A DNA stretch of 64,000 nucleotides from Escherichia coli (GTDB lineage: Bacteria > Pseudomonadota > Gammaproteobacteria > Enterobacterales > Enterobacteriaceae): NCBI RefSeq assembly GCF_013315695.1, contig NZ_CP054355.1, one strand, 5' to 3'. The notes below the pieces were generated by a model. The model ran no database searches. It was not told the DNA's origin and saw only the letters and a program-made list of their open reading frames with translations. The stretch's first letter is position 1. The number at the start of each line of letters is the position of its first letter. The position numbers were made by a program, and so were the translations under genes. Positions 9,340 through 27,874 of this stretch are shown one piece after another.

Positions 9340-9377
9340 GAGGGCTGACGCTCAGTGGAACGAAAACTCACGTTAAG
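9340..9377. repeat. Tn3-family 38-bp terminal inverted repeat-like sequence (isolated end)
   Basis: gagggctgacgctcagtggaacgaaaactcacgttaag closely resembles the Tn3 IR GGGGTCTGACGCTCAGTGGAACGAAAACTCACGTTAAG. Confidence 0.65.
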
Positions 9378-9406: not shown

Positions 9407-9443
9407 GGGGTGAGTTTGGATATGGAAATTATTGTACTATAAG
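9407..9443. repeat. Tn3-family-type IR-like 37-mer (copy A)
   Basis: GGGGTGAGTTTGGATATGGAAATTATTGTACTATAAG; GGGG...TAAG architecture; near-identical copy at 23728-23765 in the same orientation. Confidence 0.5.
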
Positions 9444-9588
9444 GAGAGCATGAAAAACCCTGGGGCAGTCACTGAATGAGGGACCAGCAGCGGTAAAATA
9501 ACCAGCATAATTTCTGCATGGTCGATTTTTATACCGTGACAGGCTGTTTTTTATACTTGCACCGATTCCCGGGCACACTTAGCCTGTG

Positions 9589-9865
9589 TCAGGCCGGCAT
9601 ATACCTCAGCAGACTGATATCCCGCGCGTTTTTCTTCAGCCCTGATACATTCAGCCCCGCAATGGCCCGGCGGTATACCATCCGGCCGCCGCACAGCACG
9701 CATTCGAACGGGTCACGACTCAGGAACTGTTTCACCATTTGTGCATAGCACACTTTCGCCACTGCTTCCGGTTTATCCATCCCCAGAGCACGGTACACCT
9801 GCGGCAGCTTCTCTCCACACACCCGGTTGGCAAGGAACCCGAAGTACCTCACCATCTTAAAAAAC
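9589..9865 (-). pseudogene. IS91-family-like transposase C-terminal fragment, N-terminally truncated by IS629
   Basis: ..VRYFGFLANR..CVLCGG.. resembles the C-terminal region of IS91/ISCR-type transposases; ORF abuts the IS629 end. Confidence 0.35.
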
Positions 9866-9919
9866 TGAACCGCCCCGGGAATCCTGGAGACTAAACTTCC
9901 TGAGAAAGAGGTAAACAGG

Positions 9920-10246
9920 ATGACTAAAAATACTCGTTTTTCCCCCGAAGTCCGTCAACGGGCAGTCCGTATGGTTCTGGAAAGTCAGGGCGAATATGAC
10001 TCACAATGGGCGACAATTTGTTCCATTGCCCCAAAGATTGGCTGTACACCGGAGACTCTGCGTGTCTGGGTACGCCAGCATGAGCGGAATACCGGAGGCG
10101 GTGATGGCGGGCTCACCACCGCTGAACGTCAGCGTCTGAAAGAGCTGGAACGTGAAAATCGTGAACTGCGCCGCAGTAACGATATCCTTCGCCAGGCTTC
10201 CGCTTATTTTGCGAAGGCGGAGTTCGACCGCCTCTGGAAAAAGTGA
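9920..10246 (+). CDS. IS629 transposase OrfA
   Basis: [19 protein letters not shown]... HTH/leucine-zipper OrfA of the IS3 family. Confidence 0.8.
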
Positions 10247-11133
10247 TGCCACTGCTGGATAAGCTGCGTAAGCTGTACGGGGTCGGACCGGTATGCAGTG
10301 AACTACATATTGCCCCGTCAACGTATTACCACTGTCAGCAACAGCGACATCATCCTGATAAACGCAGTGCCCGTGCGCAGCGCGATGACTGGCTGAAGAA
10401 AGAGATACTGCGCGTATACGATGGGAATCATCAGGTATACGGTGTGCGTAAAGTCTGGCGTCAGTTGTTACGGGAAGGAATCAGGGTAGCCAGATGTACA
10501 GTGGCGCGCCTCATGGCGGTTATGGGACTTGCCGGTGTTCTCCGGGGTAAAAAGGTCCGCACTACCGTCAGCCGGAAAGCCGTTGCCGCAGGCGACCGCG
10601 TAAACCGTCAGTTTGTGGCAGAACGTCCTGACCAGTTGTGGGTGGCTGATTTTACTTACGTCAGCACATGGCAGGGGGTCGTCTATGTGGCGTTCATCAT
10701 TGATGTGTTTGCCGGATACATCGTGGGGTGGCGGGTCTCATCGTCTATGGAAACGACATTCGTGTTGGATGCTCTGGAGCAGGCGTTATGGGCCCGTCGA
10801 CCGTCCGGCACGGTCCATCACAGTGATAAAGGTTCTCAGTATGTATCGCTGGCCTACACACAGCGGCTTAAGGAAGCCGGATTACTGGCATCAACAGGAA
10901 GTACAGGCGACTCGTATGACAACGCGATGGCGGAGAACATCAATGGTCTTTACAAAGCGGAGGTAATACACCGTAAGAGCTGGAAAAACCGTGCAGAAGT
11001 GGAACTGGCCACACTCACGTGGGTGGACTGGTATAACAATCGACGATTGCTGGAAAGGCTGGGCCATACTCCTCCGGCAGAAGCAGAAAAAGCTTATTAT
11101 GCTTCCATCGGAAACGATGATCTGGCAGCCTGA
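10243..11133 (+). CDS. IS629 transposase OrfB (DDE catalytic domain)
   Basis: IS3-family OrfB overlapping orfA in the -1 frame. Confidence 0.8.
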
Positions 11134-11175
11134 GTTCACAGATAAAACACTCTCCAGGAAACCCGGGGCGGTTCA

Positions 11176-11738
11176 CTTGGACTTAAATAGCTATAAACGT
11201 TTGTTGAATGGATGTATTTAGCGATAAAATCAGTATAAAAACCGTTATCAAAGAAGATGGACGTATACCCACCCAGACCATAGCTTTTAGTATCGCCATA
11301 ATAGCTGCCGCTCAGCTCTGCATTGGTACTTGTATGGGTAAATATTAAGCCAGTGTATAGCATTGCTGATTCAATTCTTATGCCTTTGTCTGCACCGAGT
11401 TGCAGGTGGTTGTATGTATTCTGATAACCGTCAGTGCCACTCCCCTGACCGAGCATATAGCGTCCCCAGACCCCGGCTTCTCCACTGTCGCGAATGTCCC
11501 CCATACGTTTATTGAGGTTATTCATTTCTGTAGAGAAAAGGCGGTAGCTGCTATTAGCAAAACTGGCCGCCGTACTGACTGCTTTTTTATCAGGCTCTGA
11601 GTTAAAGCCAATAATTGCCAGATTTGTACCGTTACCGTTATCACTAGTACCAAGTATCGGTGTTACGTTACTGAGCCCCGTTTTCTGGCTTATTGCCGAG
11701 AACATACTGAAATCGGTACCATCCGGTGCTTCAATTAG
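11176..11738 (-). pseudogene. autotransporter beta-barrel domain fragment trapped between IS629 and IS5
   Basis: Gly/Tyr/Ser-rich beta-strand-like sequence ending in aromatic residue; both ends cut by IS elements. Confidence 0.35.
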
Positions 11739-12934
<1,196 letters not shown>

Positions 12935-13569
12935 CTAAAGGCGTCTTTGGCTTCGGTCAGCGAACACTGCTGTTTTTCTTTGCAGGACGGTGAATCTTTG
13001 TAGTCCGTCATCTGCGCCAGCAGCTGATAGCTGTCGTCAAGCTGCATCTGGCTGCGCTCTTTTTCCATCGCCTGCACCGCTTTCTGGCTAAACGCCGCAG
13101 AGTCATCGGTGATCACCGGATTAAACGTTGGGTCCATCGTGCCCATTTTTTCCTGATGATGTACCGGAATGTCGCACCCAAGGAAAGCGCCGGTGATAAA
13201 GAATTGTGCCGTCGCAACGGTGCGTTGCAGACTGTTGGCATAGGTATATACCGTGTCCGGCGTCGGGCATTCGCCTGACGTGACCATCCCCAGCTCCGCC
13301 AGCCATTCTCGCATGTAGTGGCCCATATAAATTTCCAGCACACCGCCTTTCGTGGTGAGCTGCCCGCCGGGCACATCCCACTCCGGCCACTGATTCGGCG
13401 TGGACTGCTCCAGCACGCTGCCATTATTGGCCAACGGCGCGCGCAAGTTGTGTCGGCTCATCATCAACACTTGTTGCAGTTGATAACCTTCCGGCGTTGT
13501 CTGCGCTTGCGCGGCGGACGACAATAAAACAGCCCCTGCCACAGCGGCGGCGAGTATCAATTTTTTCAT
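12935..13569 (-). pseudogene. agp: glucose-1-phosphatase (histidine acid phosphatase) 5' fragment, truncated by IS5
   Basis: Signal peptide plus RHNLRAP (RHGxRxP) histidine acid phosphatase motif and Agp-like N-terminal sequence; reading frame runs into the IS5 end. Confidence 0.6.
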
Positions 13570-13690
13570 CCCTACAACCTCTTGTTGTTATCAATCCTCA
13601 TAGAGTGTGACAGAAATATGACATTTTTCCGGGAACGGTTTCGCAAAACGGGAGATTCCAGAAGATAACCGGCAGGTCAGCGTGTTCCGG

Positions 13691-14176
13691 TTACTCCGAG
13701 ATAAAAACCTCATACTTAATATTGCGGGCGCAATAAAAAGTGCCGTCCGTCAGATACAGTTCACGAAATCGCGTGTTATCAGAGATGTTGTCCAGCAGGG
13801 AACGTTCCGTATCGACAAATTCTTTTTGCACGCGGTAATGAACGGCGTTCTCCGTTTCAAAAGAGACATATTCCGTGGTGGCGTAGGGCTTATTTTTTGA
13901 TTTCACGTACACGATATATTGCACGGTACTGGCCGTCAGCCCCGTTTTCGCCGCGATCTCTTTGAGACTCAACGTCTCAGAGGCATAAAGCGCCTGAACC
14001 TGCGCTATGCGTCGGTGATTATACGCCGTCACCCGAAGGCTCAGTTTCAGCCGATAGGCCATATTCCGCACGGCGGTAATATTAGTGTGAAGCAGTTGCG
14101 CTATCTGCTCTGTCGTGAGGATGCCCGCGTTTTCCCGCAGAATCGCAAGGCTTTCGTCGTTCCAGATAAATGCCAT
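13691..14176 (-). CDS. putative DNA-binding protein with two helix-turn-helix-like segments
   Basis: 161 aa, no signal peptide; 25 bp downstream of the thioredoxin gene on the same strand. Confidence 0.4.
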   Translation of the reverse strand: MAFIWNDESLAILRENAGILTTEQIAQLLHTNITAVRNMAYRLKLSLRVTAYNHRRIAQVQALYASETLSLKEIAAKTGLTASTVQYIVYVKSKNKPYATTEYVSFETENAVHYRVQKEFVDTERSLLDNISDNTRFRELYLTDGTFYCARNIKYEVFISE

Positions 14177-14200
14177 TGGGTATCTCTCCGTACGCGTCGT

Positions 14201-14686
14201 TCATCGCGCCGCCAGGCGCGCAAACGTGGTCTCTAACTCAGACGGCTTACGCATACCCTGGTGTAGCTCCAGAACGCGTCCTTCGGAGTCAATCAGTACG
14301 GAGGTCGGCGTGCCGATCACCTGATAACGTTCCTGGGTAATGTTGAGCTGATCGCGCACCACCGGATAGGTTATCTGATGTTTTGCCAGCAGATCGTTGA
14401 TCCTGACCGTTTCAGGGTCGGTATTGACCGCCACAACCACCACTTTATCGCCCCATTTTTTGCTCAGCGCTTCCAGCGTGTCCATTTCCGCTAGGCACCC
14501 CCCGCATCCCGCAGACCAAAAATTCAGGTACACCGCCTTTCCTTGCCAGCGTTCAAGGCCTGACTCCTGGCCTTGCAGATCAAACGCCGCCAGCGCCGGG
14601 GCCGGTGCCCCGACCGCCAGCTTTTCTTCTTTACACCCGCTTATCAGGATCGCCGCCGCGAGTAACAGCACATTATGCCAGCGCAT
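14201..14686 (-). CDS. TlpA-like thiol:disulfide oxidoreductase lipoprotein
   Basis: Lipobox ILISGC; thioredoxin fold with CGGC active site (WSAGCGGC). Confidence 0.65.
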   Translation of the reverse strand: MRWHNVLLLAAAILISGCKEEKLAVGAPAPALAAFDLQGQESGLERWQGKAVYLNFWSAGCGGCLAEMDTLEALSKKWGDKVVVVAVNTDPETVRINDLLAKHQITYPVVRDQLNITQERYQVIGTPTSVLIDSEGRVLELHQGMRKPSELETTFARLAAR

Positions 14687-15368
14687 GTTGATTGGCCTCC
14701 TCACCCAGATATTTACCGTGTTGCAGCCGCAGAATACGGTCGGCAAACTGCCCAAGCGCAGGGTTGTGCGTCACCATCACAATCGTGCGCCCCTGACGAT
14801 GCAGATCGGTGAGCAGATCCAGCACCCGCTGCTCATTCTCTTCATCCAGGTTGCCCGTCGGTTCATCCGCGAAAATAACCGGCGGTTCGTTGACCAGCGC
14901 CCGGGCGATACACACACGCTGCTGCTCACCACCGGAAAGCTGGCTCGGCAGGTGCGTCACACGATGCCCAAGCCCTACCTGTTCCAGCACCTTCCTCGCC
15001 GCCGCTTCATCCACCACGCTGTGGTAATGCTGGGCGAGCATGATGTTTTCCAGCGCAGTTAAGAACGGGATCAAATGGAACTGCTGAAATACCAGGCCGA
15101 TTTTCTCGGCGCGAAAGCGACGGCGCCCCTCTTCATCCAGCGCGGCGGCATCGGTGCCATCAAGAAACACCTGCCCTTCCGTCGCCGTATCAAGGCACGT
15201 CAGAATATTCATCAGCGTGGTTTTACCAGAACCAGAAGCGCCCATAATGGCGACAAATTCACCCTGCGCAATGCGCAGATTAATGTCATCCAGGGCGGTA
15301 ACGTCACCGAACCGTTTGTATAAGTGGCGGGTTTCGATCGCCACCTGAGGGATATGCGTAACGGACAT
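14673..15368 (-). CDS. ABC transporter ATP-binding protein (MacB/LolD-type)
   Basis: Walker [10 protein letters not shown], signature LSGGEQQR, Walker [12 protein letters not shown]. Confidence 0.85.
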
Positions 15369-15372
15369 GGCG

Positions 15373-16533
15373 CTACTCTCCTTTCAGCACTTTAGCAGGC
15401 TCGACGCTTACCGCGCGTCGCACCGGAACAATCGCCGCCAGAATGGCGACCAGTAAAGACAACACCAGAGTAATGGGCAACACCGGCAGACGCAGTGAAA
15501 TGGCGGCATTAAACACCGTTAATCCCAACAGTTGCGCCAGCAAATATCCCAGCACCCAGCCGCACGCCACCGCCGCCAGCGCGATGATGCTGGTTTCCAG
15601 CAGAATTTGCCGCACGATATCGCCGTTGCTGGAACCAAGCGCTTTTTGCAGCGCAAACTCGCGCGCCCGCTCGCCGACAATCGCCATCAGCGTGGTATTC
15701 ACGCACAGCGAAGAGAGCGCCAGAATCACGATCGAGACCAGTCCCATCAGACCTTTAATTTTATCCAGCACCTGCCCTTCGGAAGCAGAGACCTTACGCA
15801 CCGGACGAATCTCCAGGTCAGGATACTGCGCCTGCAACCGGCTGGCATAGTTCTCCACCTGGCCGACATCGTTACTGACGCTCAGCAAGCCGTGGCTGAT
15901 TTTGCCCGGCTGATGCAGCCAGGCCTGCGCCACGTCGAGGCTGACGATCAGCATGTTGTCCGTCGCATCGCCAGACTCCACAATGCCTTTAATCTGCAAA
16001 TTCTTACGCTGATTGTGATCCACCAGCGTGATGCTGTCGCCCGGCTGCACGTTGAGGCGTTCCGCCAGTTTGACGCCGATCATCGCATTACGGTCGTCAA
16101 AACTAACGCCAATCCAGCTACCGGTGACCTGCCAGTACGGCACCAGTTTTTGCAGCGACTCGAACCACACGCCAACCATCACCACTTTTTCCAGCTCGGT
16201 ACGCGCCATGCCGTACAACCACGGACTGGCGCCATGCACCAGCCCCTGCGGCGCCTGATCGAGAATGCTCTGCAACTCCTGCTGCGGCATACTGGAACCG
16301 TGCCCCGGCCCGATGTAAAAATTCGCGCCGAAGGTGCGCAGTTCTTCGCTCATTTTGGTGTTAATGTCGAACCAGACGGCAGAAAGCGCCGTCACGATGG
16401 TCGCCCCCACCATCAGCGCGGCAAACACCACGCTGACCCGCTGAAAACGCAGACGCAGCGCCCGCCACACCAGCAGCCAGAGCATGGTACGTTTAGCGGC
16501 CATACAGCACCTCCACAGGATACAGCCGGGCAA
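15373..16533 (-). CDS. ABC transporter permease (FtsX/MacB-like)
   Basis: N-terminal TM, large periplasmic domain, C-terminal FtsX-type 3-TM bundle. Confidence 0.7.
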   Translation of the reverse strand: MPGCILWRCCMAAKRTMLWLLVWRALRLRFQRVSVVFAALMVGATIVTALSAVWFDINTKMSEELRTFGANFYIGPGHGSSMPQQELQSILDQAPQGLVHGASPWLYGMARTELEKVVMVGVWFESLQKLVPYWQVTGSWIGVSFDDRNAMIGVKLAERLNVQPGDSITLVDHNQRKNLQIKGIVESGDATDNMLIVSLDVAQAWLHQPGKISHGLLSVSNDVGQVENYASRLQAQYPDLEIRPVRKVSASEGQVLDKIKGLMGLVSIVILALSSLCVNTTLMAIVGERAREFALQKALGSSNGDIVRQILLETSIIALAAVACGWVLGYLLAQLLGLTVFNAAISLRLPVLPITLVLSLLVAILAAIVPVRRAVSVEPAKVLKGE

Positions 16534-17776
16534 TCCGCCGGGCCGGGAACCAGGTGCCGATCAACGCAATCAGTACCGCAATCACCAGTACGCACGGCAC
16601 CACAATCCAGGCAAAATTAAGCGGCGCGTCGAAGAGCATGACGCCAATCGCTTTCGCCAGCCCCCACCCGGCAATACATCCCAGCGCACCGCCAGCCAGC
16701 CCGCTGGACGCCGCTTCCAGGTAGAACAGCAGCATAATTTGCCACTGTCGCGCACCCAGCGCTTTCATCAAACCGATCTCTTTGGCGCGTTCCATAATGG
16801 TGCTGGTCATCAGCGAGGCGATCCCCATTGCGGAAGCCACCAGCGCCGCGACGGTAACGACCGCCATCAGCAACTGAATTTTATCGATCACCACCCCTTC
16901 GGACGCCGCGACCTGCCATACCGGGCGCACTTCCGCACCGGAAATCGCCTCTTCCAGCTGATGCGCGATCGACGACACATAGGCCGTGCAATACCAGAGG
17001 TCGTACTCTTCGGCATTGAGCGCGTCCAGGTTTTCCCGCGCGCGGCGGGACAGTTCGTTTTCCGGCACCGTCAGCGCCGAGACGCGAATCGCCTGCACTT
17101 TTCCGGGGAGCCCCAGCAGGTGCTGTACCGTGCTTAGCGGCATCACCAGTTGGTTATCTTCATCGCCGCCGCTGGAGAGGATACCGCTGACGGTGACCTG
17201 CACTGCTTCGCCTTCGGTACGTAATGTCAGCTTATCACCGGGTTTCCAGCCCATTTGCCGCGCCAGCGCGTGCCCGACTAAGGTCTGCGGCTCTGCGCCT
17301 GCGGGTTCCTGCGGCCAGTCGCCGGTCACCTGCCAGTATGGGCTGACCGTTTTCTGCCCCGTCTCATATCCCTCTTCATCAGGAATATCCACTGGCTGAC
17401 TGAAGAAAGTGCCCAGAATCCGCACTGGTTCTCCCTCCACGCTGGCTTCGCCGCCGAGCATCGGCGCAAACCCGACAATGTTGTTTCGCCAGAAGATATC
17501 TTTGATGTTCGGCAGCTCGGCTTCATCAAGAAAATCCTGACCGGAAAGCGGATTACTGCTCTCACTAAACAGCGCGGGCAGCGCAGCCTGTCCGGCGGGT
17601 TCAATCAAAATGTTCGCACCATAAGACTTCAGCTCTCTGGACATTTTGTCGCCGATATCAATGGACACCGCCAGCAGCGCCGAGATCAGGCTGGAGGCCA
17701 GAAAAACGGTGATTATCGCCAGCACTTTGCGGCGTAAATTGCGCCCCCAGGATTGTCGTAACATCCGCCACAGCAT
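16493..17776 (-). CDS. ABC transporter permease (FtsX/MacB-like), second copy
   Basis: Same architecture as the adjacent permease; overlaps it by about 40 bp. Confidence 0.7.
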   Translation of the reverse strand: MLWRMLRQSWGRNLRRKVLAIITVFLASSLISALLAVSIDIGDKMSRELKSYGANILIEPAGQAALPALFSESSNPLSGQDFLDEAELPNIKDIFWRNNIVGFAPMLGGEASVEGEPVRILGTFFSQPVDIPDEEGYETGQKTVSPYWQVTGDWPQEPAGAEPQTLVGHALARQMGWKPGDKLTLRTEGEAVQVTVSGILSSGGDEDNQLVMPLSTVQHLLGLPGKVQAIRVSALTVPENELSRRARENLDALNAEEYDLWYCTAYVSSIAHQLEEAISGAEVRPVWQVAASEGVVIDKIQLLMAVVTVAALVASAMGIASLMTSTIMERAKEIGLMKALGARQWQIMLLFYLEAASSGLAGGALGCIAGWGLAKAIGVMLFDAPLNFAWIVVPCVLVIAVLIALIGTWFPARRIARLYPVEVLYGR

Positions 17777-17778
17777 GA

Positions 17779-19158
17779 TTATTCCTCCCTCATGTCGGCA
17801 GGAACAAACTGCTCCGGCGTTTCACGGAAGCGTTCATAGTTAGCCTCTGACGAGAAGAACCAGGTCTTGCCGCCATAGCTGTATTTGTAATCGGCTGAGG
17901 TATTGGTCAACGTTGAACCATCGACCGGATCGGTCACTTTAATAGTCATGACCGTCGAGAAGTAGTTCACCCCTGTCGCCAGTTCTTTACCGGGGATCAC
18001 CAGCTCTTTTTCATCATTGTGCCAGTTTTCAATCGGCACCGGGTTACAGCCACCGGCCTTGCCGATAGACGGAATAAAAATATGCACTCCGCAGGCGACG
18101 CAGATAACCTGATTGCCCTCCATGACATAACCCTGATCGCCGCACAGCAGGCAGGCGTCGAACACCACGCCAAAACGCAGCTTGTCGGGATAGCGGTTAA
18201 TCACGAAGAAGCGCACCGCTTTGCCATCGTCCGCCACCCAGACGAAACGATGCAGTTTACCGTCACGAAGCTGTTCAACCGGCAGGCGCACCATGCCATC
18301 GCTCCCCAGCGTTACGGGCACGGCTTCAGAGAGTTGCGGCGGCTGCGAGGCCACTTTATCCCACCACAGTTGGCCTGCGATAACGACCACCGCGCAGCCG
18401 ATTGTGACCAACCACAGCCGCAAAGCGTTGCGACGCTGCGCCAGCGCCAGACGGTGAGCAATCGGTTCTTCGGTTTCCCGCGTCTGTCGAAAAGCCCGCA
18501 ACAGCGCCGGAAGCCAGCACAGCGCCAGGGCCAGCAGCAGCGCGGCTCCCGCCCAGTTATACAGCGCCGTGTTATTTGTGACTTTCGCCACGAAGCTCAG
18601 CAGTGATTTTCCCAGCGGAACAACCTGTAATTTCATCAGCAACAACAGCAGGTTGCCGCTCAGCGGCAGCCAGATCATCACCAGCAGAATCAGCGTTAAC
18701 GGCCAGTACAGGCCGCGAATACGCCGCAGCAGCATCGCGCAGAGTACGCCCGCCAGACAGAGGATCGCAAAAGCGAGAACGACGGCCGTCAGGTTTAACA
18801 GCAGGTCAGTATTCAGCACATGCGTACTGGTCAGCCCGCCCAGATTAGGGTCCAGCGCCCAATGGCGGGCAGCGCCGAAAATCAGAATCCCCTGCCACAG
18901 ATAGCGGATACGCGTTGAAGCCCACCAGAAACTGAGGACAAACAGCAGCGATACCATGACCTCCGCCCCAACCAGCAGCAGTTGTACCGGTTGGCTGCCG
19001 TGAATAAACAGTCCCGCCAGCACGCCGGCAATCAGCCCGGTCAGCAGCGTCCAGGTCAGCGGACGTAAAGAGGGAGGATCGTTTCGACTCCAGAGAACAC
19101 CGGAAAGAAGCGCAATGCAGAAAAAGACCTGTAGCGTCGTGACGAAAAAGTAACTCAT
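17779..19158 (-). CDS. polytopic membrane protein with C-terminal Cys-cluster and YHS-like domain (Cj1660-like)
   Basis: Multiple hydrophobic helices; C-terminal CLLCGD...CVACG...GGC and ..YGGKTWFFSS..ANYERF. Confidence 0.5.
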   Translation of the reverse strand: MSYFFVTTLQVFFCIALLSGVLWSRNDPPSLRPLTWTLLTGLIAGVLAGLFIHGSQPVQLLLVGAEVMVSLLFVLSFWWASTRIRYLWQGILIFGAARHWALDPNLGGLTSTHVLNTDLLLNLTAVVLAFAILCLAGVLCAMLLRRIRGLYWPLTLILLVMIWLPLSGNLLLLLMKLQVVPLGKSLLSFVAKVTNNTALYNWAGAALLLALALCWLPALLRAFRQTRETEEPIAHRLALAQRRNALRLWLVTIGCAVVVIAGQLWWDKVASQPPQLSEAVPVTLGSDGMVRLPVEQLRDGKLHRFVWVADDGKAVRFFVINRYPDKLRFGVVFDACLLCGDQGYVMEGNQVICVACGVHIFIPSIGKAGGCNPVPIENWHNDEKELVIPGKELATGVNYFSTVMTIKVTDPVDGSTLTNTSADYKYSYGGKTWFFSSEANYERFRETPEQFVPADMREE

Positions 19159-19261
19159 AACTTCGACTCTGTACGGCGGGTTGAATTAAGCGACGGGCAT
19201 ATGATCGGTCTGACCAACGCGCCAGAAGGGGGAATCCTCCTGGCGCGTTGGTTAGTCGGTT

Positions 19262-19792
19262 TTAGTTCAGACCGACATATTTAAACTCGTAGCTCACATC
19301 AAACGGTTTCCACCAGCGGCCTACGCCTGTTTCGCTGTCAGTATGGCGATGCATCCCGGCTTTTGACGGCGGTTCAATGTGGTAGGTCACTTTATAGTTG
19401 CCCACGCCCATCATTTTGATGTTCGCGCCATAGTGCGGGCCATCGCTGGCAACCATCGGCATGAAGGTGCCTTCCTGTTTTTCGCCCGTGTCGTTGTTGA
19501 CCAGGGTGTAGCTGATGGTCAGGTACGGGATCCATTCCCCTGCGCCAAAGCCGTTTTTATTGCCTTCTACAGCGTGGATATCCGCTTCAAGGTGAACATC
19601 GGCTTTTGCTGCCGGTAAGCCCATGCCGCGCGGTTCCATATCAATCGGTTGCAGGTAAACGGCCGCCAGCTCCATTTCATTCATGGTGACAGGCTCGCCT
19701 GCCGGGTACTCTTTAAAAGCAAACGCGGCTGGCGCAATGAAAATGCTGGCCATCACTGCGCTGGCAATCAGGGTTTTCTTCATGGTCATCAA
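19262..19792 (-). CDS. fetP: P19-family periplasmic iron-transport protein (FetP-like)
   Basis: 176 aa with signal peptide; immediately 3' of an FTR1 permease as in P19/FetP systems. Confidence 0.6.
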   Translation of the reverse strand: MMTMKKTLIASAVMASIFIAPAAFAFKEYPAGEPVTMNEMELAAVYLQPIDMEPRGMGLPAAKADVHLEADIHAVEGNKNGFGAGEWIPYLTISYTLVNNDTGEKQEGTFMPMVASDGPHYGANIKMMGVGNYKVTYHIEPPSKAGMHRHTDSETGVGRWWKPFDVSYEFKYVGLN

Positions 19793-19829
19793 ACGTATCC
19801 TCTCGTCTAAAACAACGGCTATACAACGA

Positions 19830-21776
19830 TTATGGGTTATTTTTTATCGTCTCCCCGGGAACCGCGCTTTTGCGCCGCATCACCCACAGCGCCACCAGCG
19901 CCGCGAGCAGCAATACGACCTGCGGTAACAACGTTTCCACGTAGGGATAAATCCCCAGCCAGCTGATTTCAGGGAAGCCGTTAATCAACGTAGGCTGGAA
20001 CAGTTTGCCTTCCACCAGTTCCAGAACGCCTTTGCCCGCAAAGACGAAGGCCATCAGATACATGAAACTGCCGGTAAACATAAAGAAGGGTTTCAGCGGC
20101 AGGCGCACCACTGAGTAACGCATCACCAGCCAGGCGAGCAGCAGCACCACGCAGCCAATCACAAAACCGGCGCCAATCGCCATATGGCCGGATACCGTGT
20201 TTGCATCGCCAATCAGAGCGTAATAGAACAGCACCGTTTCCGCCCCTTCGCGGTACACCGCCAGGAAGCTGGTCAGCCATAGTCCGACCAGGGAGCCTCG
20301 CGACAGGGAATGAGACAGTTTGCCTTCCAGCCAGGCTTTCCAGTGGCGCGCTTCCACTTTGGACAGCAGCCAGTAACTCATAAAGAACAGCATCACGACG
20401 GCAATCAGCATCGTTATGCCTTCCAGCAGTTCACGGCTGGCGCCGGAGTTAGTAAACAGCATCTGGAAGATAGCGGCGGTGATGACGCTGGCGATCAGCG
20501 CCACAATTACCGACTGACGAATAAGCGGCAGCTTATCCTGATGGTTGTTTTTCACCATGTAGGCCACGATTGCCGCAACAATCAGCAGCGCTTCCAGCCC
20601 CTCGCGCACGATGATCATCAGACTATAGAGCAGCAGACTCCACTGGGTTTCTTCGCCTTCGCCCAGCATCGTCACGGCTTTTTGCAGATCCTGCGCCAGC
20701 GCGCTGGCCTCTGCATTCAGGCGCTCAACCGGCTGACCGGCCTTCATCAGACTGACCAGGCGGGTAAAATACGCCTCCAGCGTGGTTTTAAATGCCGAAT
20801 CGCGAGAGCCGATTTTGTTTTCCATGCCGCTGGCTTCGAAGCGGTCGAAGTAGGTATCCTGGATATCCAGAATCGCATTCTTCGCATCGCCGCCCTGATA
20901 GCGCGCTATCGCGTCCTGAATGCTCTGGTTAATTCCCGTCGTCACCTCAGCCCAGTCGGTGCGGTTATTTCCCTCGTCCGCCGCCGGAATGTTGTCTGCG
21001 CTTTGCGCTGCGGCAACCTGCTGATCGTCACGGGTGGTTGGCAAGCCGGGTAAGATATCCTCGATATCCTGTAGCAGCGTAGTGACCTGATAGGAGACAT
21101 CGTTGAGATGGTCAGGTTGCGCGGTCAGCGCAATCAGGGATGAGAATTGTTGGTTAATGGAGGCGGCATCTTTTGCAGAACGGTTTTGTCTGAGGGACAT
21201 CTCCATCTCAGAGTTTTTAAAGCCCTGATAGTGCGCCTGTTGAACGTGCTGACTGGCAACGCTGTAATTCCCGGCCTGATATTCAGTGACCGCCTGCGCC
21301 AGCAGATCGTCGATCGTCCTGAAACTCTCCTGCCAGTGAACGGCAATGTCGTCCCTGGACAGCGCGTTGTGCTGCTCTTCGGCCACCAGACGATGTCCGC
21401 CATCCAGCACCGGTTCCACTTCGCGCAGTGCGGCTTTCAGCCAGTCAATGCGCGCCTGGACGTCAGCGAGCGGTTTTTTCTCGCCAATCATTCGACGGAT
21501 CTCGCCGAATGCGCTCTCCATCTCGTAACTTTTGCGCGCGGAAATGTTGATGCGGATCGGCCCTTCCAGGTTCTCGAACACCTCAAAATAGGCCATTTGT
21601 ACCGTGCGGCGCGCCTCGTCGGCATGCTGTTGCTGATAAAGTTCCGCTGTTTTATCAAGACGTTGCTCGATATCTTCAATCAAAGGCGCATAATTCGTCG
21701 ACGCCCAGACACTCATGCTTATAAACAAGCCAAAGAGAGTAACCAACAAAGAGTTACGGAAGTTACGCACGTGCAC
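19830..21776 (-). CDS. fetM: FTR1-family iron permease with large N-terminal periplasmic domain (FetM-like)
   Basis: 648 aa; two RExxE motifs (REGLE, REGAE) in the C-terminal membrane domain. Confidence 0.7.
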   Translation of the reverse strand: MHVRNFRNSLLVTLFGLFISMSVWASTNYAPLIEDIEQRLDKTAELYQQQHADEARRTVQMAYFEVFENLEGPIRINISARKSYEMESAFGEIRRMIGEKKPLADVQARIDWLKAALREVEPVLDGGHRLVAEEQHNALSRDDIAVHWQESFRTIDDLLAQAVTEYQAGNYSVASQHVQQAHYQGFKNSEMEMSLRQNRSAKDAASINQQFSSLIALTAQPDHLNDVSYQVTTLLQDIEDILPGLPTTRDDQQVAAAQSADNIPAADEGNNRTDWAEVTTGINQSIQDAIARYQGGDAKNAILDIQDTYFDRFEASGMENKIGSRDSAFKTTLEAYFTRLVSLMKAGQPVERLNAEASALAQDLQKAVTMLGEGEETQWSLLLYSLMIIVREGLEALLIVAAIVAYMVKNNHQDKLPLIRQSVIVALIASVITAAIFQMLFTNSGASRELLEGITMLIAVVMLFFMSYWLLSKVEARHWKAWLEGKLSHSLSRGSLVGLWLTSFLAVYREGAETVLFYYALIGDANTVSGHMAIGAGFVIGCVVLLLAWLVMRYSVVRLPLKPFFMFTGSFMYLMAFVFAGKGVLELVEGKLFQPTLINGFPEISWLGIYPYVETLLPQVVLLLAALVALWVMRRKSAVPGETIKNNP

Positions 21777-21790
21777 ACCGCCAAAGAATG

Positions 21791-21812
21791 CAAATGATAA
21801 TTATTATCATAT
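21791..21812. promoter_or_regulatory. Fur box upstream of the fetM-like operon
   Basis: aatgataattattatcat, near-palindromic match to the Fur consensus, about 15 bp upstream of the fetM start. Confidence 0.6.
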
Positions 21813-22062
21813 CTTTTTGTCGCGTTGTACATGACCTGGATCATAAAAATGTCAGCAGACGACAAGTTATGTAAATTTATTTCATCAAATCGTGATGAAC
21901 ACACACATTATGCGTTGATAAAAGGGACGTTATCTCCCTGTTTTTCTCATGGAATTAACGGCAAGGCAGGCGCGGTAACAGAGGAATAAATCCCCCTGCC
22001 GACAGTGATATTATTCATTATCGGCAGGCAGAAATAAAACGCGTTATTGCGTACAGCAATAT

Positions 22063-22824
22063 TCAAAGATTAAGGTTATTTCGATCGCTGGCAAGACGCT
22101 GTAAGAATTGACCATATCCCTGCGGCCCCATCCAGTAGTTAATACTTTTCTCAACGCCGGTTGATGTCAACGTCGCACCGGAAATACCGTCAACGGTATA
22201 TTCATCGGCATGTTCAGGTTTATCCTGTACTATTTTCAATGCAGGATGTCCGCTGTTATCTAATAATCGTTTCCCTGGCCACTGTTTGCGCCAGTTGGCG
22301 TCTTCCACCCTAGCCCCCAGAAACGGCGTTTCCCGTTGCTGATAATAATACAGATTTCTCACCGTACGACCGTCCAGCCCCAGAGCAAGAAACGCATGCA
22401 TCATGGATTTCGCGCCCTTACCGGTAACTGGAATGATAACCTGCTGAATTTCATTATTTTTATCTTTCACAAAGAACACATCCGCCACCGTACAGCGCTG
22501 ACGAACCTGCGCTGGGTCGCGTTCAGGGGCAAGTTTTTCACACTTCTGCCGCGCGGTGTCCGCGCTGCTGCCAGCCACCAGTTCGCCGGAATCTAAATTA
22601 ACATGGCGTTGAATAATATAACGATGATAGAGCGTTTCGACTGATTTTTTATCCTGGGTCTCTGATTTCATCAGGCCCGCAGCGTGTAAAATTGCCGCCT
22701 GTTTTTCCTCCTCTGTCGGCTCCGTCATTTCTCCCTGGAACAGCATAAACCATGCCGCCGCCGCAACAAAAATAAGGACACAAAGCACCATCATTGATGC
22801 AACAATAATTTTACCCTTGCGCAT
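22063..22824 (-). CDS. orphan NqrC/RnfG-type FMN-binding domain protein, membrane-anchored
   Basis: N-terminal TM; C-terminal ..VIIPVTGKG..SMMHAFLALGLDG..YYQQRETP..DGISGATLTSTGV.. as in NqrC flavinylation region; no other nqr genes nearby. Confidence 0.6.
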   Translation of the reverse strand: MRKGKIIVASMMVLCVLIFVAAAAWFMLFQGEMTEPTEEEKQAAILHAAGLMKSETQDKKSVETLYHRYIIQRHVNLDSGELVAGSSADTARQKCEKLAPERDPAQVRQRCTVADVFFVKDKNNEIQQVIIPVTGKGAKSMMHAFLALGLDGRTVRNLYYYQQRETPFLGARVEDANWRKQWPGKRLLDNSGHPALKIVQDKPEHADEYTVDGISGATLTSTGVEKSINYWMGPQGYGQFLQRLASDRNNLNL

Positions 22825-23035
22825 TGAATTGTTATCCCTGTCAAAATGGAAATCGAAAAAATCGCCTGAACGTATCACAGACTTTCATTCAATTAAAACA
22901 GATATGCCATTATCAATTCAGGTTTGCAACGTCAGGCAGCGGTAAAAAATAATAACTGGCGTCGGTAAAAAAGCAGCAAAAATAACAGAAAACACGCTCT
23001 CCGCTCGTTTTACACATCCTTACAATGGGTTAAAA

Positions 23036-23058
23036 AATGCCGGGTTTCCCCGGCACGC
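23036..23058 (-). terminator. Rho-independent terminator after scsD
   Basis: Minus-strand hairpin gccggggaaacccggc followed by a T-run. Confidence 0.55.
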
Positions 23059-23060
23059 TA

Positions 23061-23567
23061 TCAAAACATGGCTGCCCGCCACAGACGTAACTTCATGCCC
23101 CAGTAGCTGGTCCAGCCGCTGGTCGTAGTTACCACCTGCCCCTTCGACACCACCACCAGCGTTGGCGTGACGCTGATTTCCCAGTTTCGTGATATCTCAC
23201 CGCCGCTATCATTCACGACGGGGAACGTCACCCTTTTACGCGATAACCAGCGGGAAACCTCCCCGTCATTACCGGAACGCAGCGCGATGGTCATGACGCT
23301 CTCCCCTTCCGACTGCAAACGGGCGACATCCGGCGTGGTGAAACGGCAGATACCGCACCAGCTCGCCCAGAAGTAGAGCAGCACCGGGCGTTCTTCACTG
23401 ATCGACGCCAGCGTTACGGTTTCCCCGTCCAGCGTATGCAGCGGCGTGCTGTCAAACATGGCCGGCATCTGCGGAGAACGCCAGACATCCAGCAGGATTA
23501 TCACGCCAGCCAGCAGAACCAGTAAGATCGCGCCTTCACGCAGCCAGCGGCGCAGTTTACTGAGCAT
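23061..23567 (-). CDS. scsD: ScsD-like membrane-anchored thioredoxin-like protein
   Basis: 168 aa, N-terminal TM, WASWCGICR CxxC motif. Confidence 0.65.
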   Translation of the reverse strand: MLSKLRRWLREGAILLVLLAGVIILLDVWRSPQMPAMFDSTPLHTLDGETVTLASISEERPVLLYFWASWCGICRFTTPDVARLQSEGESVMTIALRSGNDGEVSRWLSRKRVTFPVVNDSGGEISRNWEISVTPTLVVVSKGQVVTTTSGWTSYWGMKLRLWRAAMF

Positions 23568-23727
23568 GGGCCACCGCCAGTTTTTCTTTCACCACCGCCT
23601 CAAGGGTCTCCCACGATACCGCGCCGGGGATCATCTCGTCGCCAATGATGGTTGCCGGCGTCCCCTGAACGCCAACCAGCCGGGCGAGTTGCAGATTGGT
23701 GCTCAACGTCTCCATGCTTTTCTCATC
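23557..23727 (-). pseudogene. scsC: ScsC (DsbA-like) C-terminal fragment, truncated at IR copy B
   Basis: ..GVQGTPATIIGDEMIPGAVSWETLEAVVKEKL.. typical DsbA-like C-terminus; overlaps the scsD start. Confidence 0.5.
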
Positions 23728-23765
23728 GGGGTCAGTTTGGATATAGAGAATTATTGTACTATAAG
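23728..23765. repeat. Tn3-family-type 38-bp IR-like sequence (copy B)
   Basis: GGGGTCAGTTTGGATATAGAGAATTATTGTACTATAAG; same orientation as copy A. Confidence 0.5.
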
Positions 23766-24318
23766 GACTTCCCCGGCATGTCAACGCCGGTGTTTACGGT
23801 TTCTGTCTGCACTATAGTAAAAAAATAAAGGGGAGAGACTGCGGTACTATAAACGATCATGATGAATCGTCATCGATTCGGACCCTGATGAAAGACGCTC
23901 GTGAGGCTCTAGTTCGTTAGTCGGGTACACTTGCCCTGTACAATAAGCAGATATACCTCACGGGGTCTAACCCTTTATCATCAACGAGTTGCAGATCAGA
24001 TGGTCATACAGCTTTGTACTTTAGCTGGCTGAGTACAACCTGAAATCATCACCGTAATGCAATGATGCCCAGCACAGTCTTGCATTTTTGGCAGCGATGG
24101 CAACAACAGCGCGCCAGTATCCTCTGCGTTCGACCAGTGAGCAGACCCAACGACTGAATAAATCAGTCCTTTTCTCCGCCCCGATCAGTACCGAGCGGGC
24201 ACCCTGAACCAGAAGTGTTCTCAGATACGAATCGCCAGCTTTCGTTATCCTGCCAAGCTTCGACTTTCCGCCGCTGCTGTACTGCGATGGTGTCAGTCCC
24301 AGCCAGGCTGCCAGCTGG
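23766..24318 (-). mobile_element. IS110/IS1111-family element 3' fragment (transposase C-terminus at about 24021-24318), truncated by IS26
   Basis: ..LAAWLGLTPSQYSSGGKSKLGRITKAGDSYLRTLLVQGARSV.. is an IS110-family C-terminal signature. Confidence 0.5.
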
Positions 24319-24687
24319 GGCACTGTTGCAAAGTTAGCGATGAGGCAGCCTTTTGTCTTATTCAAAGGCCTTACATTTCAAAAACTCTGCTTACCAGGCG
24401 CATTTCGCCCAGGGGATCACCATAATAAAATGCTGAGGCCTGGCCTTTGCGTAGTGCACGCATCACCTCAATACCTTTGATGGTGGCGTAAGCCGTCTTC
24501 ATGGATTTAAATCCCAGCGTGGCGCCGATTATCCGTTTCAGTTTGCCATGATCGCATTCAATCACGTTGTTCCGGTACTTAATCTGTCGGTGTTCAACGT
24601 CAGACGGGCACCGGCCTTCGCGTTTGAGCAGAGCAAGCGCGCGACCATAGGCGGGCGCTTTATCCGTGTTGATGAATCGCGGGATCT
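24319..24687 (-). mobile_element. IS26 partial copy (right IR plus 3' end of tnpA26), interrupted by the Tn3-family transposon
   Basis: IR ggcactgttgcaaa at 24319; ORF ends ...KGQASAFYYGDPLGEMRLVSRVFEM as in IS26 Tnp; identity stops at 24687. Confidence 0.8.
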
Positions 24688-24720
24688 GGGCTCCGTTTGG
24701 GAAACGGAAAATATTGTACG

Positions 24721-27708
24721 TTAAGGCTGTTTTTTGTACTGACTGACATCAACTGCTCGCAAAGGACGATACTTCCCTTCAGCCAGCTTCTTATTGTTTT
24801 TCCAGATATAGTCCCCTGTCAGATTAATGTGCTCCCAGCCCAGCGGAGACAAATGTGACAACAATTGCTCATTAATATGTAGCCCTTTCTTTTTCAGCAG
24901 GTTAATGGCGTTTTCTATATATACGGTATTCCACAAAGTGATTGCGGCAGTGAGCAGCGTAAGCCCACTGGCGCGGTAACTCTGGTTTTCAATACCACGA
25001 TCCCTTATTTCTCCCAGACGATGCATGAAGACAGCTCTGGCAAGGGCATTCCGGGCTTCCCCTTTGTTCAGACCTGCCTGAACCCTACGACGAAGCGCCG
25101 GATCGCGGAACCAGTCCAGCATGAACAGTGTTCGCTCAATACGACCAATTTCTCTTAACGCCTTAGCAAGGCCATTCTGTTTCGGATAACTGGTCAATTT
25201 TTTCAGCATCAGAGAAGCGGTCACTGTTCCCTGTTTTATTGAGGTCGCCAGTCTCAGAATTTCATTCCAGTGTATTTTTATCTCTTTGATATTCAGGGGG
25301 GTTGTGGAGATAATTGACTGTAGAGCAGGATAGTTATCAGCTTTACCTTGAATAAACAAACGTTTGTCATGCAGATCCCGGATCCTTGGGGCAAAAGCGA
25401 ATCCCAGCAGATGCATTAGTGCAAAAACATGCTCCGTGAAACCTGCTGTATCGGTGTAATGTTCCGTTATATCAAGGTCACTTTCGTGATACAGAAGACC
25501 ATCAAGTACGTGGGTGGAATCACGAACACGACTGATTACTTTGGTATAAAACGGACTATATTGATCTGAGATATGCGTATAAAACTGCACCCCAGGTTCC
25601 TGACCGTACTTCAAATTAACCTGACCGGCATAGCGCCCATGACTGCCAACCCTAAAATTCTGGCCGTCAGAGGATGAGGTGGAACCGTCTCCCCATAATG
25701 CCGCCAGCGGTCGTGACTTCTGGGCATTAACCAGTTCTGCCAGTGCAGCAGAGTACGTTTCATCACGGATGTACCATGCTTGTATGTTTTCCAGCGAAGC
25801 TCGTGTGGTTCCCGGACAGGACTCTGCCATTTTTTCCAACCCTAGATTGATGCCGTCCGCCAGGATAGTGGTTAGTAGTAAACGATTATCCTGAGGACGG
25901 ATTAGCGGATTCTTAAGATGAGTAAAATGTCGCGAGAAGGCAGTCCATCGCTCGACTTCATCAAGTATCTCTGTAATTTTGGGGTGCGGTAGCATGTTGT
26001 AAATCAGGTCGGCCAGGGGAGAGACTGTTGAAGGAACGCTGTTATCCAGTGGGGTGATCTTTACACCTTTATCTGAAATATCCACATCAGGAAGCTCCCC
26101 TGCGACAGCCATTGCGTTAACTTCCTCCAGACGGGAGGCCAGTAGAGTCAGTCTGGCATTAAGATAAGCCCCGCATTCTGTGCCAACAGGTAAATTTAAT
26201 AGGTTATTATTTAATAACTTTTCGAAATCATCGTTAGGCATAAGATAATCATCAAAGTTTTTGTAGCGCCGGGAGCCCCTGACCCAGATATCACCCGCCC
26301 GCAGCGCCCCCTTTAGCTCATTCATTGCGCAAATTTCATAGTATTGTCGGTCAATGCCTGAGGGGGTGACCACCATCTTTCTCCAGCTCTCAGGAATGAA
26401 ATCCAGTGGTGCCGATGCAGGAACCTTTCGTAGCTGTTTACGGTACATATCACGAATAGTTTCAAGGGCATCATTAAGCGGCAACGCTGCCGAAGTGGCT
26501 CTCAGTTGCAGGGCCGATAGAAAACGAAAAGAATATTTGCGCAATGTACTGAATTTTTCGGTAATAAGATGAAGCGGCTCAAAATTATCCTTACGTGCAA
26601 GAAGCTTTGTTTCCTCCAGACTGGCGACAAAATCGTCCCACGGTAACACTCGTTCAATAGCAGACAGAGGATCTTCGCCTGCATTGCGTGCATCCAGGAT
26701 AGCCTGGCCAACAGAAACATACTGACGTAACTTTTGCTGTATCAACTTGCCCGTTTTCTGAAGACGCTCAGCCTGCTGATGTTTTGCCCGACTGAACATG
26801 CTGCCTAGAATACGTTCATGCAGTTCTATAATTTCATCAATGATTGTGGCTCTGGCCTCAGTCAGTACACAGACCATCGTTGCGTATCGACGAGCAGGGG
26901 AAAAATCAGCCAGATCGCGACTGCTCATTTTGCGGCCCTCACGCGCGAGTTTCAGCAATCGGTTCTGGTGAACGGTTCTCTCCACTCCTTCCGGCAGCGC
27001 CAGAGCTTCAATAGCGTTAAGGCGGTCAATGTGTTGCAGGACATTCTTTCCATTGATTTTCCCTGGAGGTTGAAGCAGCCACGTCAAACGGGATATTTGT
27101 TTTTCATTTGTCACCAACAGGGCATCAAGCGCAGATTTATGCGTGATATCAAGGTGCGCATTCAGCGTTGTATACACCGTTTTATCACCCAGTGTCATTG
27201 CTTCTGCACAGGTACGTTCCAGAACATCAATGCCTGGAATAATAATTCGCTGTTGATGCAGGTACTTTAGTAACTCCTCTGCGATAAGTATGCCTCTGTC
27301 CGTTCTGGTAGACAGAGGGAGCAGATGCCGGATACATTCTTTCTGAAGTGCACCGTTAAAGGCTTTCAGTTCAAGATATCGATAAAGTTCCCTCATATGC
27401 TCACGTCTGGTGGTATCACGACCGGAAACGTATTCCTGCCAAAGTTCTGCTGATAACTTAAGTCGAGCGCCAATGGTTTTTAGCAATTTTGCGGGTGGGG
27501 ATGATTTTTTATCCGGGGCAAACCCAATACTTTTCAGATAACAGAGAAGAACGGCAAAACCAAACCGGCTGGCAGGTTTACGGTGAGCATTGATAATTGC
27601 CAGATCCTGCTCACTGAAATACGTCATTCGAGTCAGTGTTAACTCATCGTCTGGCAATGCCAGTAATGATTCTCTTTCCGATAGAGAAAGAATCTGCCTC
27701 CTTGCCAT
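24721..27708 (-). CDS. tnpA: Tn3-family transposase TnpA
   Basis: 995 aa; stop codon lies inside the terminal IR as in Tn3-family elements. Confidence 0.8.
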   Translation of the reverse strand: MARRQILSLSERESLLALPDDELTLTRMTYFSEQDLAIINAHRKPASRFGFAVLLCYLKSIGFAPDKKSSPPAKLLKTIGARLKLSAELWQEYVSGRDTTRREHMRELYRYLELKAFNGALQKECIRHLLPLSTRTDRGILIAEELLKYLHQQRIIIPGIDVLERTCAEAMTLGDKTVYTTLNAHLDITHKSALDALLVTNEKQISRLTWLLQPPGKINGKNVLQHIDRLNAIEALALPEGVERTVHQNRLLKLAREGRKMSSRDLADFSPARRYATMVCVLTEARATIIDEIIELHERILGSMFSRAKHQQAERLQKTGKLIQQKLRQYVSVGQAILDARNAGEDPLSAIERVLPWDDFVASLEETKLLARKDNFEPLHLITEKFSTLRKYSFRFLSALQLRATSAALPLNDALETIRDMYRKQLRKVPASAPLDFIPESWRKMVVTPSGIDRQYYEICAMNELKGALRAGDIWVRGSRRYKNFDDYLMPNDDFEKLLNNNLLNLPVGTECGAYLNARLTLLASRLEEVNAMAVAGELPDVDISDKGVKITPLDNSVPSTVSPLADLIYNMLPHPKITEILDEVERWTAFSRHFTHLKNPLIRPQDNRLLLTTILADGINLGLEKMAESCPGTTRASLENIQAWYIRDETYSAALAELVNAQKSRPLAALWGDGSTSSSDGQNFRVGSHGRYAGQVNLKYGQEPGVQFYTHISDQYSPFYTKVISRVRDSTHVLDGLLYHESDLDITEHYTDTAGFTEHVFALMHLLGFAFAPRIRDLHDKRLFIQGKADNYPALQSIISTTPLNIKEIKIHWNEILRLATSIKQGTVTASLMLKKLTSYPKQNGLAKALREIGRIERTLFMLDWFRDPALRRRVQAGLNKGEARNALARAVFMHRLGEIRDRGIENQSYRASGLTLLTAAITLWNTVYIENAINLLKKKGLHINEQLLSHLSPLGWEHINLTGDYIWKNNKKLAEGKYRPLRAVDVSQYKKQP

Positions 27709-27874
27709 ATAGTTATCCTTGTTAATTATTTAGTACGTTATTTTTGATGAAAAGGTTATTGCATAAGGGTACACCCTGATGCGAGATATAAAATGTGACC
27801 TCATACAAATAATGACATAACCTATATGCGATAGAATATATGCAACAACCTAAATGCGACAATGCGGTGAAAAA
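27709..27874. promoter_or_regulatory. res site / divergent promoter region between tnpA and tnpR
   Basis: AT-rich intergenic region with repeated atgcga-containing subsites. Confidence 0.5.

Follow-up and report, generated by a model that had tools for sequence, protein, structure and literature searches.

Directly repeated 38-mers on an Escherichia coli IncF virulence plasmid as probable junction scars between Tn3-family inverted repeats and IS5708/IS1618-group insertion sequences

Insertion sequences (ISs) of the IS1111 family carry sub-terminal inverted repeats (IRs) 11-13 nt long, flanked by extensions of 7 bp on the left and 3 bp on the right (PMC11187229). Transposons of the Tn21 subfamily have 38-bp IRs into which IS4321 and IS5075 insert (Partridge & Hall 2003, cited from PMC11187229), and IS5708, ISEc76, ISSm1, ISCfr26, IS1618 and ISLad6 form one group with more than 85% transposase identity but only ~37% identity to IS4321/IS5075 (PMC11187229 data). 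Recombinases of the IS110/IS1111 type are RNA-guided, with a seekRNA shown for other IS1111 members (PMC11187229) and a bridge RNA also described (PMC11208160). In a 64,000-nt stretch of Escherichia coli contig NZ_CP054355.1, hereafter the window, two near-identical 38-mers (copies A and B) bracket a 14.3-kb segment carrying iron-uptake and scs genes. Each is very probably a junction scar in which 32 nt of a Tn3-family IR meet the right end of an IS5708/IS1618-group element (TAT + AAGG...), the two scars being independent, decayed and not the limits of a mobile 14-kb unit.

Copy A (GGGGTGAGTTTGGATATGGA-AATTATTGTACTATAAGGA, 9407-9445) and copy B (GGGGTCAGTTTGGATATAGAGAATTATTGTACTATAAGGA, 23728-23767), both read from the + strand of the window, differ by two substitutions and a one-base indel and have GGGG at the left, so that the near-identity and direct orientation reported in an earlier sequence-only reading hold at the places where it put them. 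The similarity extends from the first base of GGGG to the end of ...TATAAGGA, beyond which the flanks (AAGTA at one copy, TCATC at the other) are unrelated and offer no matching 5-bp duplications; no run of identical bases is longer than 19 nt. Chance falls far short of explaining the match: when the two halves were searched apart with three mismatches allowed, the chance expectation was 0.24 and 0.06 per window, and no further close copy of either half was found within the 64 kb. As Tn3-family terminal repeats in direct orientation, the copies are not the two ends of one transposon, in agreement with the earlier reading. Neither is the partner of the other, because the two IRs share a direction, each with its interior on the right.

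The boundary between IR and IS came into question because a 591-nt query from copy B matched IS110-family elements in many genera with the 38-mer included. Native IRs were sampled by a pattern scan of one genome per species, which yielded at least 120 DNA stretches; with the other loci retrieved, the 32-nt core occurs 138 times. In Enterobacterales, about 115 of the 138 continue with GTTAAG, GGTAAG or a close variant, and the IR consensus is GGGGTCAGTTTGGATAT(C/A)GA(A/G)AATTATTGTACGTTAAG; the 32-nt core with G(T/G)TAAG after it recurs at these ~115 loci. Among the ~115 intact, IS-free ends, none continues with TATAAG. All TATAAG cases are an IS or a truncated stump, as at locus L009, where TATAAGG runs directly into IS26, or L084, where 17 nt are left. 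The recurring sequences are ~38 bp long, with GGGG at the outer and TAAG at the inner end, as in a Tn3-family IR; the window keeps no more than positions 1-32 of it, and its TAAG comes from the IS. About 15% of the IR copies (20/138) are occupied, the loci coming mostly from the one-genome-per-species scan.

Five independent IS copies are complete, at 1365-1367 bp; each has the junctions ...TTGTAC^TAT...TCCATTC^G(T/G)TAAG (where ^ marks a junction), their far end consisting of GGGGAAGTCCCT + TCCATTC, and removal of the IS in silico rebuilds a 38-bp IR in each of the five. The far junction ...TCCATTC^GTTAAG is also present in Klebsiella pneumoniae pC320_2 and Yersinia pestis pMT1, with a Tn3-family tnpA after it in the Klebsiella plasmid. 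Position and orientation of insertion are the same in the five complete copies and at the junctions of A, B, L133 and L005, and no duplication accompanies them. The IS5708/IS1618 group inserts one way only, between IR positions 32 and 33 (...TTGTAC^GTTAAG). Because the IS sits inside the IR, the last 6-7 nt of each 38-mer (TATAAGG) are IS sequence in the place of the displaced GTTAAG, and the likeness of the IS tip TATAAG to those bases gives the composite the look of a whole IR. What is repeated is not one IR but 32 nt of IR (31 in A) joined to 7 nt of IS end.

A Citrobacter plasmid locus (L005; stretches 2990-3020 and 4355-4380) carries two insertions in one IR, an IS4321-like element and IS5708, in the arrangement ...CTCATTA^AATATCCTAC^TATAAGGGCTTCCCC...GGGGAAGTCCCTTCCATTC^GCTAAG. 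Ten nucleotides lie between these two different ISs in the single IR, and TATAAGG must therefore be IS sequence. At L008, IS4321 alone lies cleanly between IR positions 22 and 23, and the IS5708 site (32/33) is ten bases inward of this.

The element found here shares with IS4321/IS5075 the geometry of the IS1111 family (12-nt sub-terminal IRs with a 7-bp left and a 3-bp right extension), a non-coding region downstream of the transposase gene, and the use of one orientation and one fixed position in a Tn3-family IR without duplication. It differs in belonging to the IS5708/IS1618 group, with its distant transposases, in entering 10 nt further in, and in having a different Tn3-family clade as its main target; the two kinds of element can nevertheless share one IR, as L005 illustrates. 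No published statement of the target of the IS5708/IS1618 group was found in the open literature. The fixed 32/33 target, together with the tip that imitates the displaced IR bases, is the one mildly new point.

At copy B the IS is still recognizable over several hundred base pairs. Plasmid CP067754.1 of K. pneumoniae carries a copy with 98.6% DNA identity to it, and identity to IS1618 is 88.5%. The C-terminal transposase fragment of 98 aa matches positions 252-341 of 343 of NF033542 (IS110 family RNA-guided transposase; E = 4e-28). Since ~70% of the transposase is lost, this copy cannot act. The sequence-only reading had placed an IS1111-type fragment after a complete IR; the fragment is present, but it lies inside the IR at 32/33. 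Two other points of that reading stand: scsC is truncated exactly at copy B (Table 1), and the habit of IS1111-group elements of targeting Tn3-family IRs explains the junction. On the far side, IS26 adjoins and truncates the IS, as in the IS26-mediated adjacent deletions of IncF resistance and virulence plasmids; nothing is unusual in this, which explains the decay and not the repeat. In a sister IncF plasmid (L009; CP088373.1, pF16EC0618-3; 5001-5060), IS26 has eaten its way to a point 7 nt from the IR, trimming the copy-B IS to TATAAGG. That stump looks just like copy A in the window and shows that IS26 erosion is ongoing at this locus. A tblastn search for intact scsC in plasmids returned essentially only the same truncated allele. 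With a chimera of scsC', full IS and tnpA end as query, no plasmid was found to hold scsC', a complete IS and the transposon together, and no record with the scsC' flank passes the IS26 cut.

The ancestral state of copy A is preserved in related plasmids. Eight plasmids, mostly from Shiga toxin-producing E. coli (STEC), have the copy-A left flank and IR part followed by TATAAGGGCTTCCCC... and at least 745 bp of an IS5708-like element, whose identity to the copy-B IS is 89%. In L133 (CP027641.1), which is one of the eight, the 6 kb to the left are 99.2% identical to the window, with the same Tn3-like IR and the same copy-A IR, after which come TATAAGGGCTTCCCCGAACAG... and ~745 bp of the IS5708-like element. 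Copy A therefore once carried an IS of its own. In the window, copy A runs after TATAAGG into AGAGCATGAAAAACCC..., a leader that elsewhere stands upstream of pRiA4b-ORF3-family genes. An IS origin of these 70 nt is ruled out by that occurrence.

The family owning the IR, which the sequence-only reading had left unnamed, is a Tn3-family clade with 38-bp IRs, a 5-bp duplication and related TnpA transposases. Locus L104, a transposon of 6901 bp, has two 38-bp IRs and the duplication AATTA/AATTA; besides tnpA (product 995 aa) and tnpR it carries genes for formaldehyde detoxification. The frmRAB transposon found on pKpQIL-like K. pneumoniae plasmids has a TnpA 99.9% identical to this one, and an IS5708-group element occupies each of its two IRs (L006, 1118-1846 and 8644-9372); L058 and L119 have perfect IR pairs. 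Relatives, among them the 6.9-kb tnpA-tnpR-frmRAB transposon and 3.9-kb tnpA-tnpR elements, have 38-bp IRs of the form GGGG...TAAG, a 5-bp duplication and a TnpA of ~990-1012 aa matching NF033527 (Tn3 family transposase). Paired IRs around tnpA with a 5-bp duplication thus occur in these relatives and not in the window, which, unlike them, keeps only the outer 31-32 nt of one end at each copy and lacks a cognate tnpA, a res site and a partner IR. A search of the 64 kb gave no inverted partner for A or B, the only other matches being an element at 24688-28562 and a relic at ~60.7-60.9 kb.

The TnpAs of the owner clade are ~96% identical to each other, 76% to the TnpA in the window (24721-27708), which itself matches NF033527, and 29% to the TnpA of Tn3. 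The window TnpA is 56% identical to one that NCBI names TnAs3 family, which we take to belong with the Tn21-type transposons. Because of these identities, the owner of the A and B IRs is placed in a Tn3-family clade near the Tn21 subfamily; the NCBI names and annotations examined hold no specific transposon name for it. The element at 24688-28562 was considered as the owner and is only a relative, with an IR identical at 27 of 39 positions and a TnpA at 76%.

Three of the 32 IR positions distinguish A from B. Both variants recur at other loci (L110 and L016 for one, L007 and L015 for the other). Since the ISs at the two copies are different variants as well, two independent histories of transposon and IS are the simplest account. 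At copy B, a transposon of the owner clade would have landed in scsC, an IS would then have entered its IR, and IS26 may finally have removed the rest of the IS together with the whole transposon body. At copy A, a second, slightly different transposon end would have become nested 29 bp inside a Tn3-like element and been hit by a different IS variant, which in the lineage of this plasmid may later have shrunk by deletion to 4-7 bp, which now adjoin unrelated DNA. That the scars are in direct orientation and 14.3 kb apart is an accident of history. They are immobile, each without transposase or partner end, and are too short and interrupted to recombine at a meaningful rate.

A single event, such as intramolecular replicative or one-ended transposition or a segmental duplication, could instead have duplicated one IR::IS end and made the 14.3 kb a unit that a transposase can mobilise. 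In its favour, the copies share an orientation and a kind of junction, and a related Tn3-family transposase that looks intact is encoded 1 kb farther right. Such an event is nonetheless very unlikely: the 32-nt IR parts carry three differences, against an identity of at least 99% among plasmids in the DNA around them, the sister-plasmid IS at A is a different variant from that at B, and the unrelated flanks share no 5-bp duplication. The IR of the neighbouring element is only 69% identical. The left boundary of the segment is a fusion of IS stump and leader, not an IR, and its interior is a patchwork cut by IS91-like and IS629-like elements without target duplications. Its ends are direct, and the block was seen only in the same plasmid context, with no case at another site with a 5-bp duplication. 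The arrangement is kept in hundreds of plasmids, 512 records covering the copy-A junction and 724 carrying the truncated scsC allele.

A further alternative, highly improbable too, makes copy A a mutated but otherwise intact IR: its inner end would have reached TATAAG through random drift, and the IS of the STEC plasmids would have entered it afterwards. The far junction at copy A would then be ...TCCATTC^TATAAGGAGAGC, compared with ...^GTTAAG if copy A holds an IS stump. The outer part of copy A has in fact diverged by three changes, and AGG is shared with the adjoining leader. Drift would, however, have to produce at both position 33 and position 34 a particular substitution that none of the ~115 native IRs shows and that coincides with the IS end; the predicted guide motif of the IS would expect CGTTAAG on that side, and L009 and L084 demonstrate that short IS stumps do arise.

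The sequence-only reading had proposed that the pair could excise or invert the island, and direct repeats can in principle mediate deletion, homologous or site-specific, of the iron-uptake/scs block; they cannot invert it. The usual minimum for RecA is ~25-30 nt. The longest perfect block in the pair is shorter, and the IS transposase is cut to 98 codons. The joint predicted for A x B deletion, in which the A flank meets the window-type IS, was built in silico and looked for in 72,556 plasmids and 5,426 complete E. coli genomes, and none was found; the only contiguous matches, end to end in eight plasmids at 93.4%, are the copy-A IR with its own IS, a different structure. Copy B does vary among sister plasmids, as in L009, but through an IS26-adjacent deletion and not through A x B recombination. 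Active deletion by the pair is therefore extremely unlikely, and this part of the earlier proposal is not supported. That both 38-mers are complete native IRs of one Tn3-family type with the inner end ...ACTATAAG, the IS1111 fragment merely adjoining B, is hardly credible despite their canonical GGGG...TAAG shape and length, given the lack of TATAAG in the ~115 IS-free IRs, the five complete ISs that own the TAT AAGG... end and leave G(T/G)TAAG at the far side, and the 10 nt between two ISs in the single IR of L005.

Candidate guide motifs are present in the non-coding region of the copy-B IS. GTACAATAA at 23938-46 has the reverse complement TTATTGTAC, which equals IR positions 24-32 and abuts the insertion point, and CCTGTACAATA, the sequence around it, is identical in all 14 IS copies aligned (the remaining rows of the alignment, L079 and L084, are not IS at that point). 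CGTTAG lies at 23915-20, where most other IS copies have CGTTAAG, equal to IR positions 32-38; in L124 the guide GGTAA is paired with a GGTAAG target. GTACTATAA at 23844-52 is the junction sequence itself. The predicted guide motifs match both sides of the insertion point, as is reported for seekRNAs, and would fit guidance of the kind shown for other IS1111 members (PMC11187229). Unlike active systems of this kind, the window IS lacks most of its transposase. Rfam scans of both junction regions gave no match.

Several points weigh against the interpretation of A and B as independent scars of RNA-guided insertion. Finished assemblies without deletion variants do not exclude rare events in populations, and the transposon body of copy B was not recovered from any plasmid. 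The stump at copy A is only 4-7 nt, with AGG shared with the leader, so that in the window alone it cannot be told from chance. The sister plasmids, and the lack of TATAAG at native ends, carry the case for copy A. The single 9-nt guide match has p ~0.056 against shuffles, with position and conservation left out of account. Guidance of the IS5708/IS1618 group by RNA is probable by analogy with its relatives, Rfam holding no model for it.

The IS5708/IS1618 group could represent a second guide-RNA-directed IS lineage specialised on Tn3-family IRs, with entry at 32/33 and a TAT-AAG tip that rebuilds a near-consensus 38-bp end. The ~15% occupancy of IRs, the presence of the IS at both ends of the frmRAB transposon and the absence of this target from the searchable literature hint at it, and we consider it unlikely. 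If it were true that this mimicry keeps a capped end usable by the transposase, the IS would hitch-hike in a still-mobile transposon instead of killing it, and stumps such as A and B could stay usable as one-ended substrates for a related TnpA (e.g. 24721-27708).

A site-specific IS that captures the ends of one transposon clade again and again, with IS26-type erosion after it, produced this real but ordinary pair, which defines neither a mobile island nor a rearrangement switch. In annotation of plasmids of the pUTI89/pCE10A type, the 38-mers should be treated neither as complete IRs nor as boundaries of a mobile iron-uptake/scs island. The junctions are a record of how the island was assembled and trimmed, and Tn3-family IR :: IS5708-group junctions are useful as lineage markers, copy A retaining the IS in STEC plasmids and a stump in those of extraintestinal pathogenic E. 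coli (ExPEC). More widely, a second IS1111-family group that uses a different fixed position in Tn3-family IRs merits a line in IS and transposon databases if it is not there already.

Table 1. Coordinates of the two junctions and of neighbouring features in the window
Feature	Position	Strand	Description
Tn3/Tn2-like 38-bp IR (GAGGGCTGACGCTCAGTGGAACGAAAACTCACGTTAAG)	9340..9377	+	outer relic; copy-A transposon nested in it, 29 bp further in
Copy A, IR part	9407..9437	+	outer 31 nt (positions 1-32, one base missing) of Tn3-family 38-bp IR; transposon interior would lie rightward
Copy A, IS stump	9438..9444	+	TATAAGG, 4-7 nt of the right end of an IS5708-group IS1111-family element; AGG microhomology at joint with next segment
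Leader fragment (AGGAGAGCATGAAAAACCC...)	9445..9513	+	conserved ~70 nt; cut off by IS91-family fragment
IS91-family element fragment	9514..9865	+	94.7-98.9% matches in many plasmids, some annotated IS91 family transposase (sampled rows)
IS3-family IS, 1310 bp	9866..11175	+	no target-site duplication; flanks AAC and CTT
Cargo between the copies	11176..23556	-	autotransporter beta-barrel fragment, two unannotated open reading frames, FTR1/P19-type iron-uptake operon with ABC transporter and TlpA, NqrC-like gene, scsD
scsC' remnant	23557..23727	-	C-terminal 56 codons and stop of DsbA-family gene; Pfam DSBA 146-189 of 191, E = 1.3e-8; cut exactly at copy B
Copy B, IR part	23728..23759	+	outer 32 nt of Tn3-family 38-bp IR; identical to AGAG variant of consensus
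IS5708/IS1618-group (IS1111-family) IS, right-end 559 bp	23760..24318	-	cut by IS26
3-bp extension TAT	23760-62		part of copy-B IS
Sub-terminal IR AAGGACTTCCCC	23763-74		part of copy-B IS
Non-coding region	23775-24020		part of copy-B IS; expected to encode guide (seek) RNA
Last 98 transposase codons	24021-24318		part of copy-B IS
IS26 fragment (starts GGCACTGTTGCAAA)	24319..24687	.	truncates IS1111-family element; itself cut by next element
Tn3-family element, intact-looking, 3875 bp	24688..28562	-	perfect 48-nt terminal IRs, tnpA 995 aa, tnpR 220 aa

The outer IR to the left of copy A matches what we take to be the Tn3 IR at 36 of 38 positions, and L133 retains its inverted partner at 11415-11455. 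The leader that follows copy A has relatives in L010 (~4001-4074), L011 (~4001-4075) and L012 (~4001-4038, 38 nt only). It carries a mini open reading frame, ATGAAAAACCCTGGGGCAGTCACTGAATGA (MKNPGAVTE*), and is found ahead of pRiA4b-ORF3-family genes on several plasmids that are not related, with 80-95% identity. Its role could be that of a leader peptide or of a regulatory RNA; an Rfam scan gave no match. The IS3-family element, presumably IS629-like by its ends (TGAACCGCCCCGGGAATCC), joins the IS91-family fragment to the autotransporter beta-barrel fragment, a signature of IS-mediated rearrangement.

The Tn3-family element at 24688-28562 has no 5-bp duplication. Its left flank is the interior of IS26 (GATCT) and its right flank is TGCTA, where 932 bp absent from pEBM1 and pCE10A begin; the flanks imply an element-associated deletion or recombination, not simple insertion. 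Its best full-length DNA match in PLSDB is 94.8%, and its best protein match 93%.

TIMEs are Tn3-derived inverted-repeat miniature elements, and solo Tn3-family IRs can undergo one-ended transposition. Copies A and B resemble TIMEs as solo derivatives of Tn3-family ends; they differ in being single ends in direct orientation that form no miniature element. Elements of ~240 bp with this IR family do exist. A miniature relic at 60682-60926 has on one side the inner part AATTATTGTACGGTAAG, its outer 20 nt replaced, and on the other the inverted end GGGTTCAGTTTTGAGATCGGGAATTTTTGTACATTAAG. A similar 236-bp element at L133 9951-10186 truncates the IS.

The window comes from an IncF virulence plasmid of E. 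coli that belongs to the pUTI89/pCE10A/pEBM1 type; 18 kb around the 38-mers, used as a query, matched dozens of such plasmids at 99.5-99.9%. Annotation of the matching plasmids places cjr-type TonB genes and senB to the left and IS26 and RepFII to the right. A gamma-delta (Tn1000)-like IR at 3360-3397 (- strand) and the Tn3/Tn2-like IR at 9340-9377 (+ strand) face outwards from the cjr-senB block, so this virulence block lies between two further Tn3-family relics; the similarity to the STEC plasmid L133 begins exactly at 3397. The RepFII region (29495-31472) is 94% identical to that of pEBM1/pCE10A, compared with 99.8-99.9% for the virulence/iron region. This difference marks the window plasmid as a recombinant that has another FII backbone, with the breakpoint at the Tn3-family element. 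Farther to the right, at 41820-41960, ~13 tandem copies of TGGCTGTTG include one - strand frame that reads (QQP)n, presumably the C-terminal repeat of the F-plasmid protein TraD.

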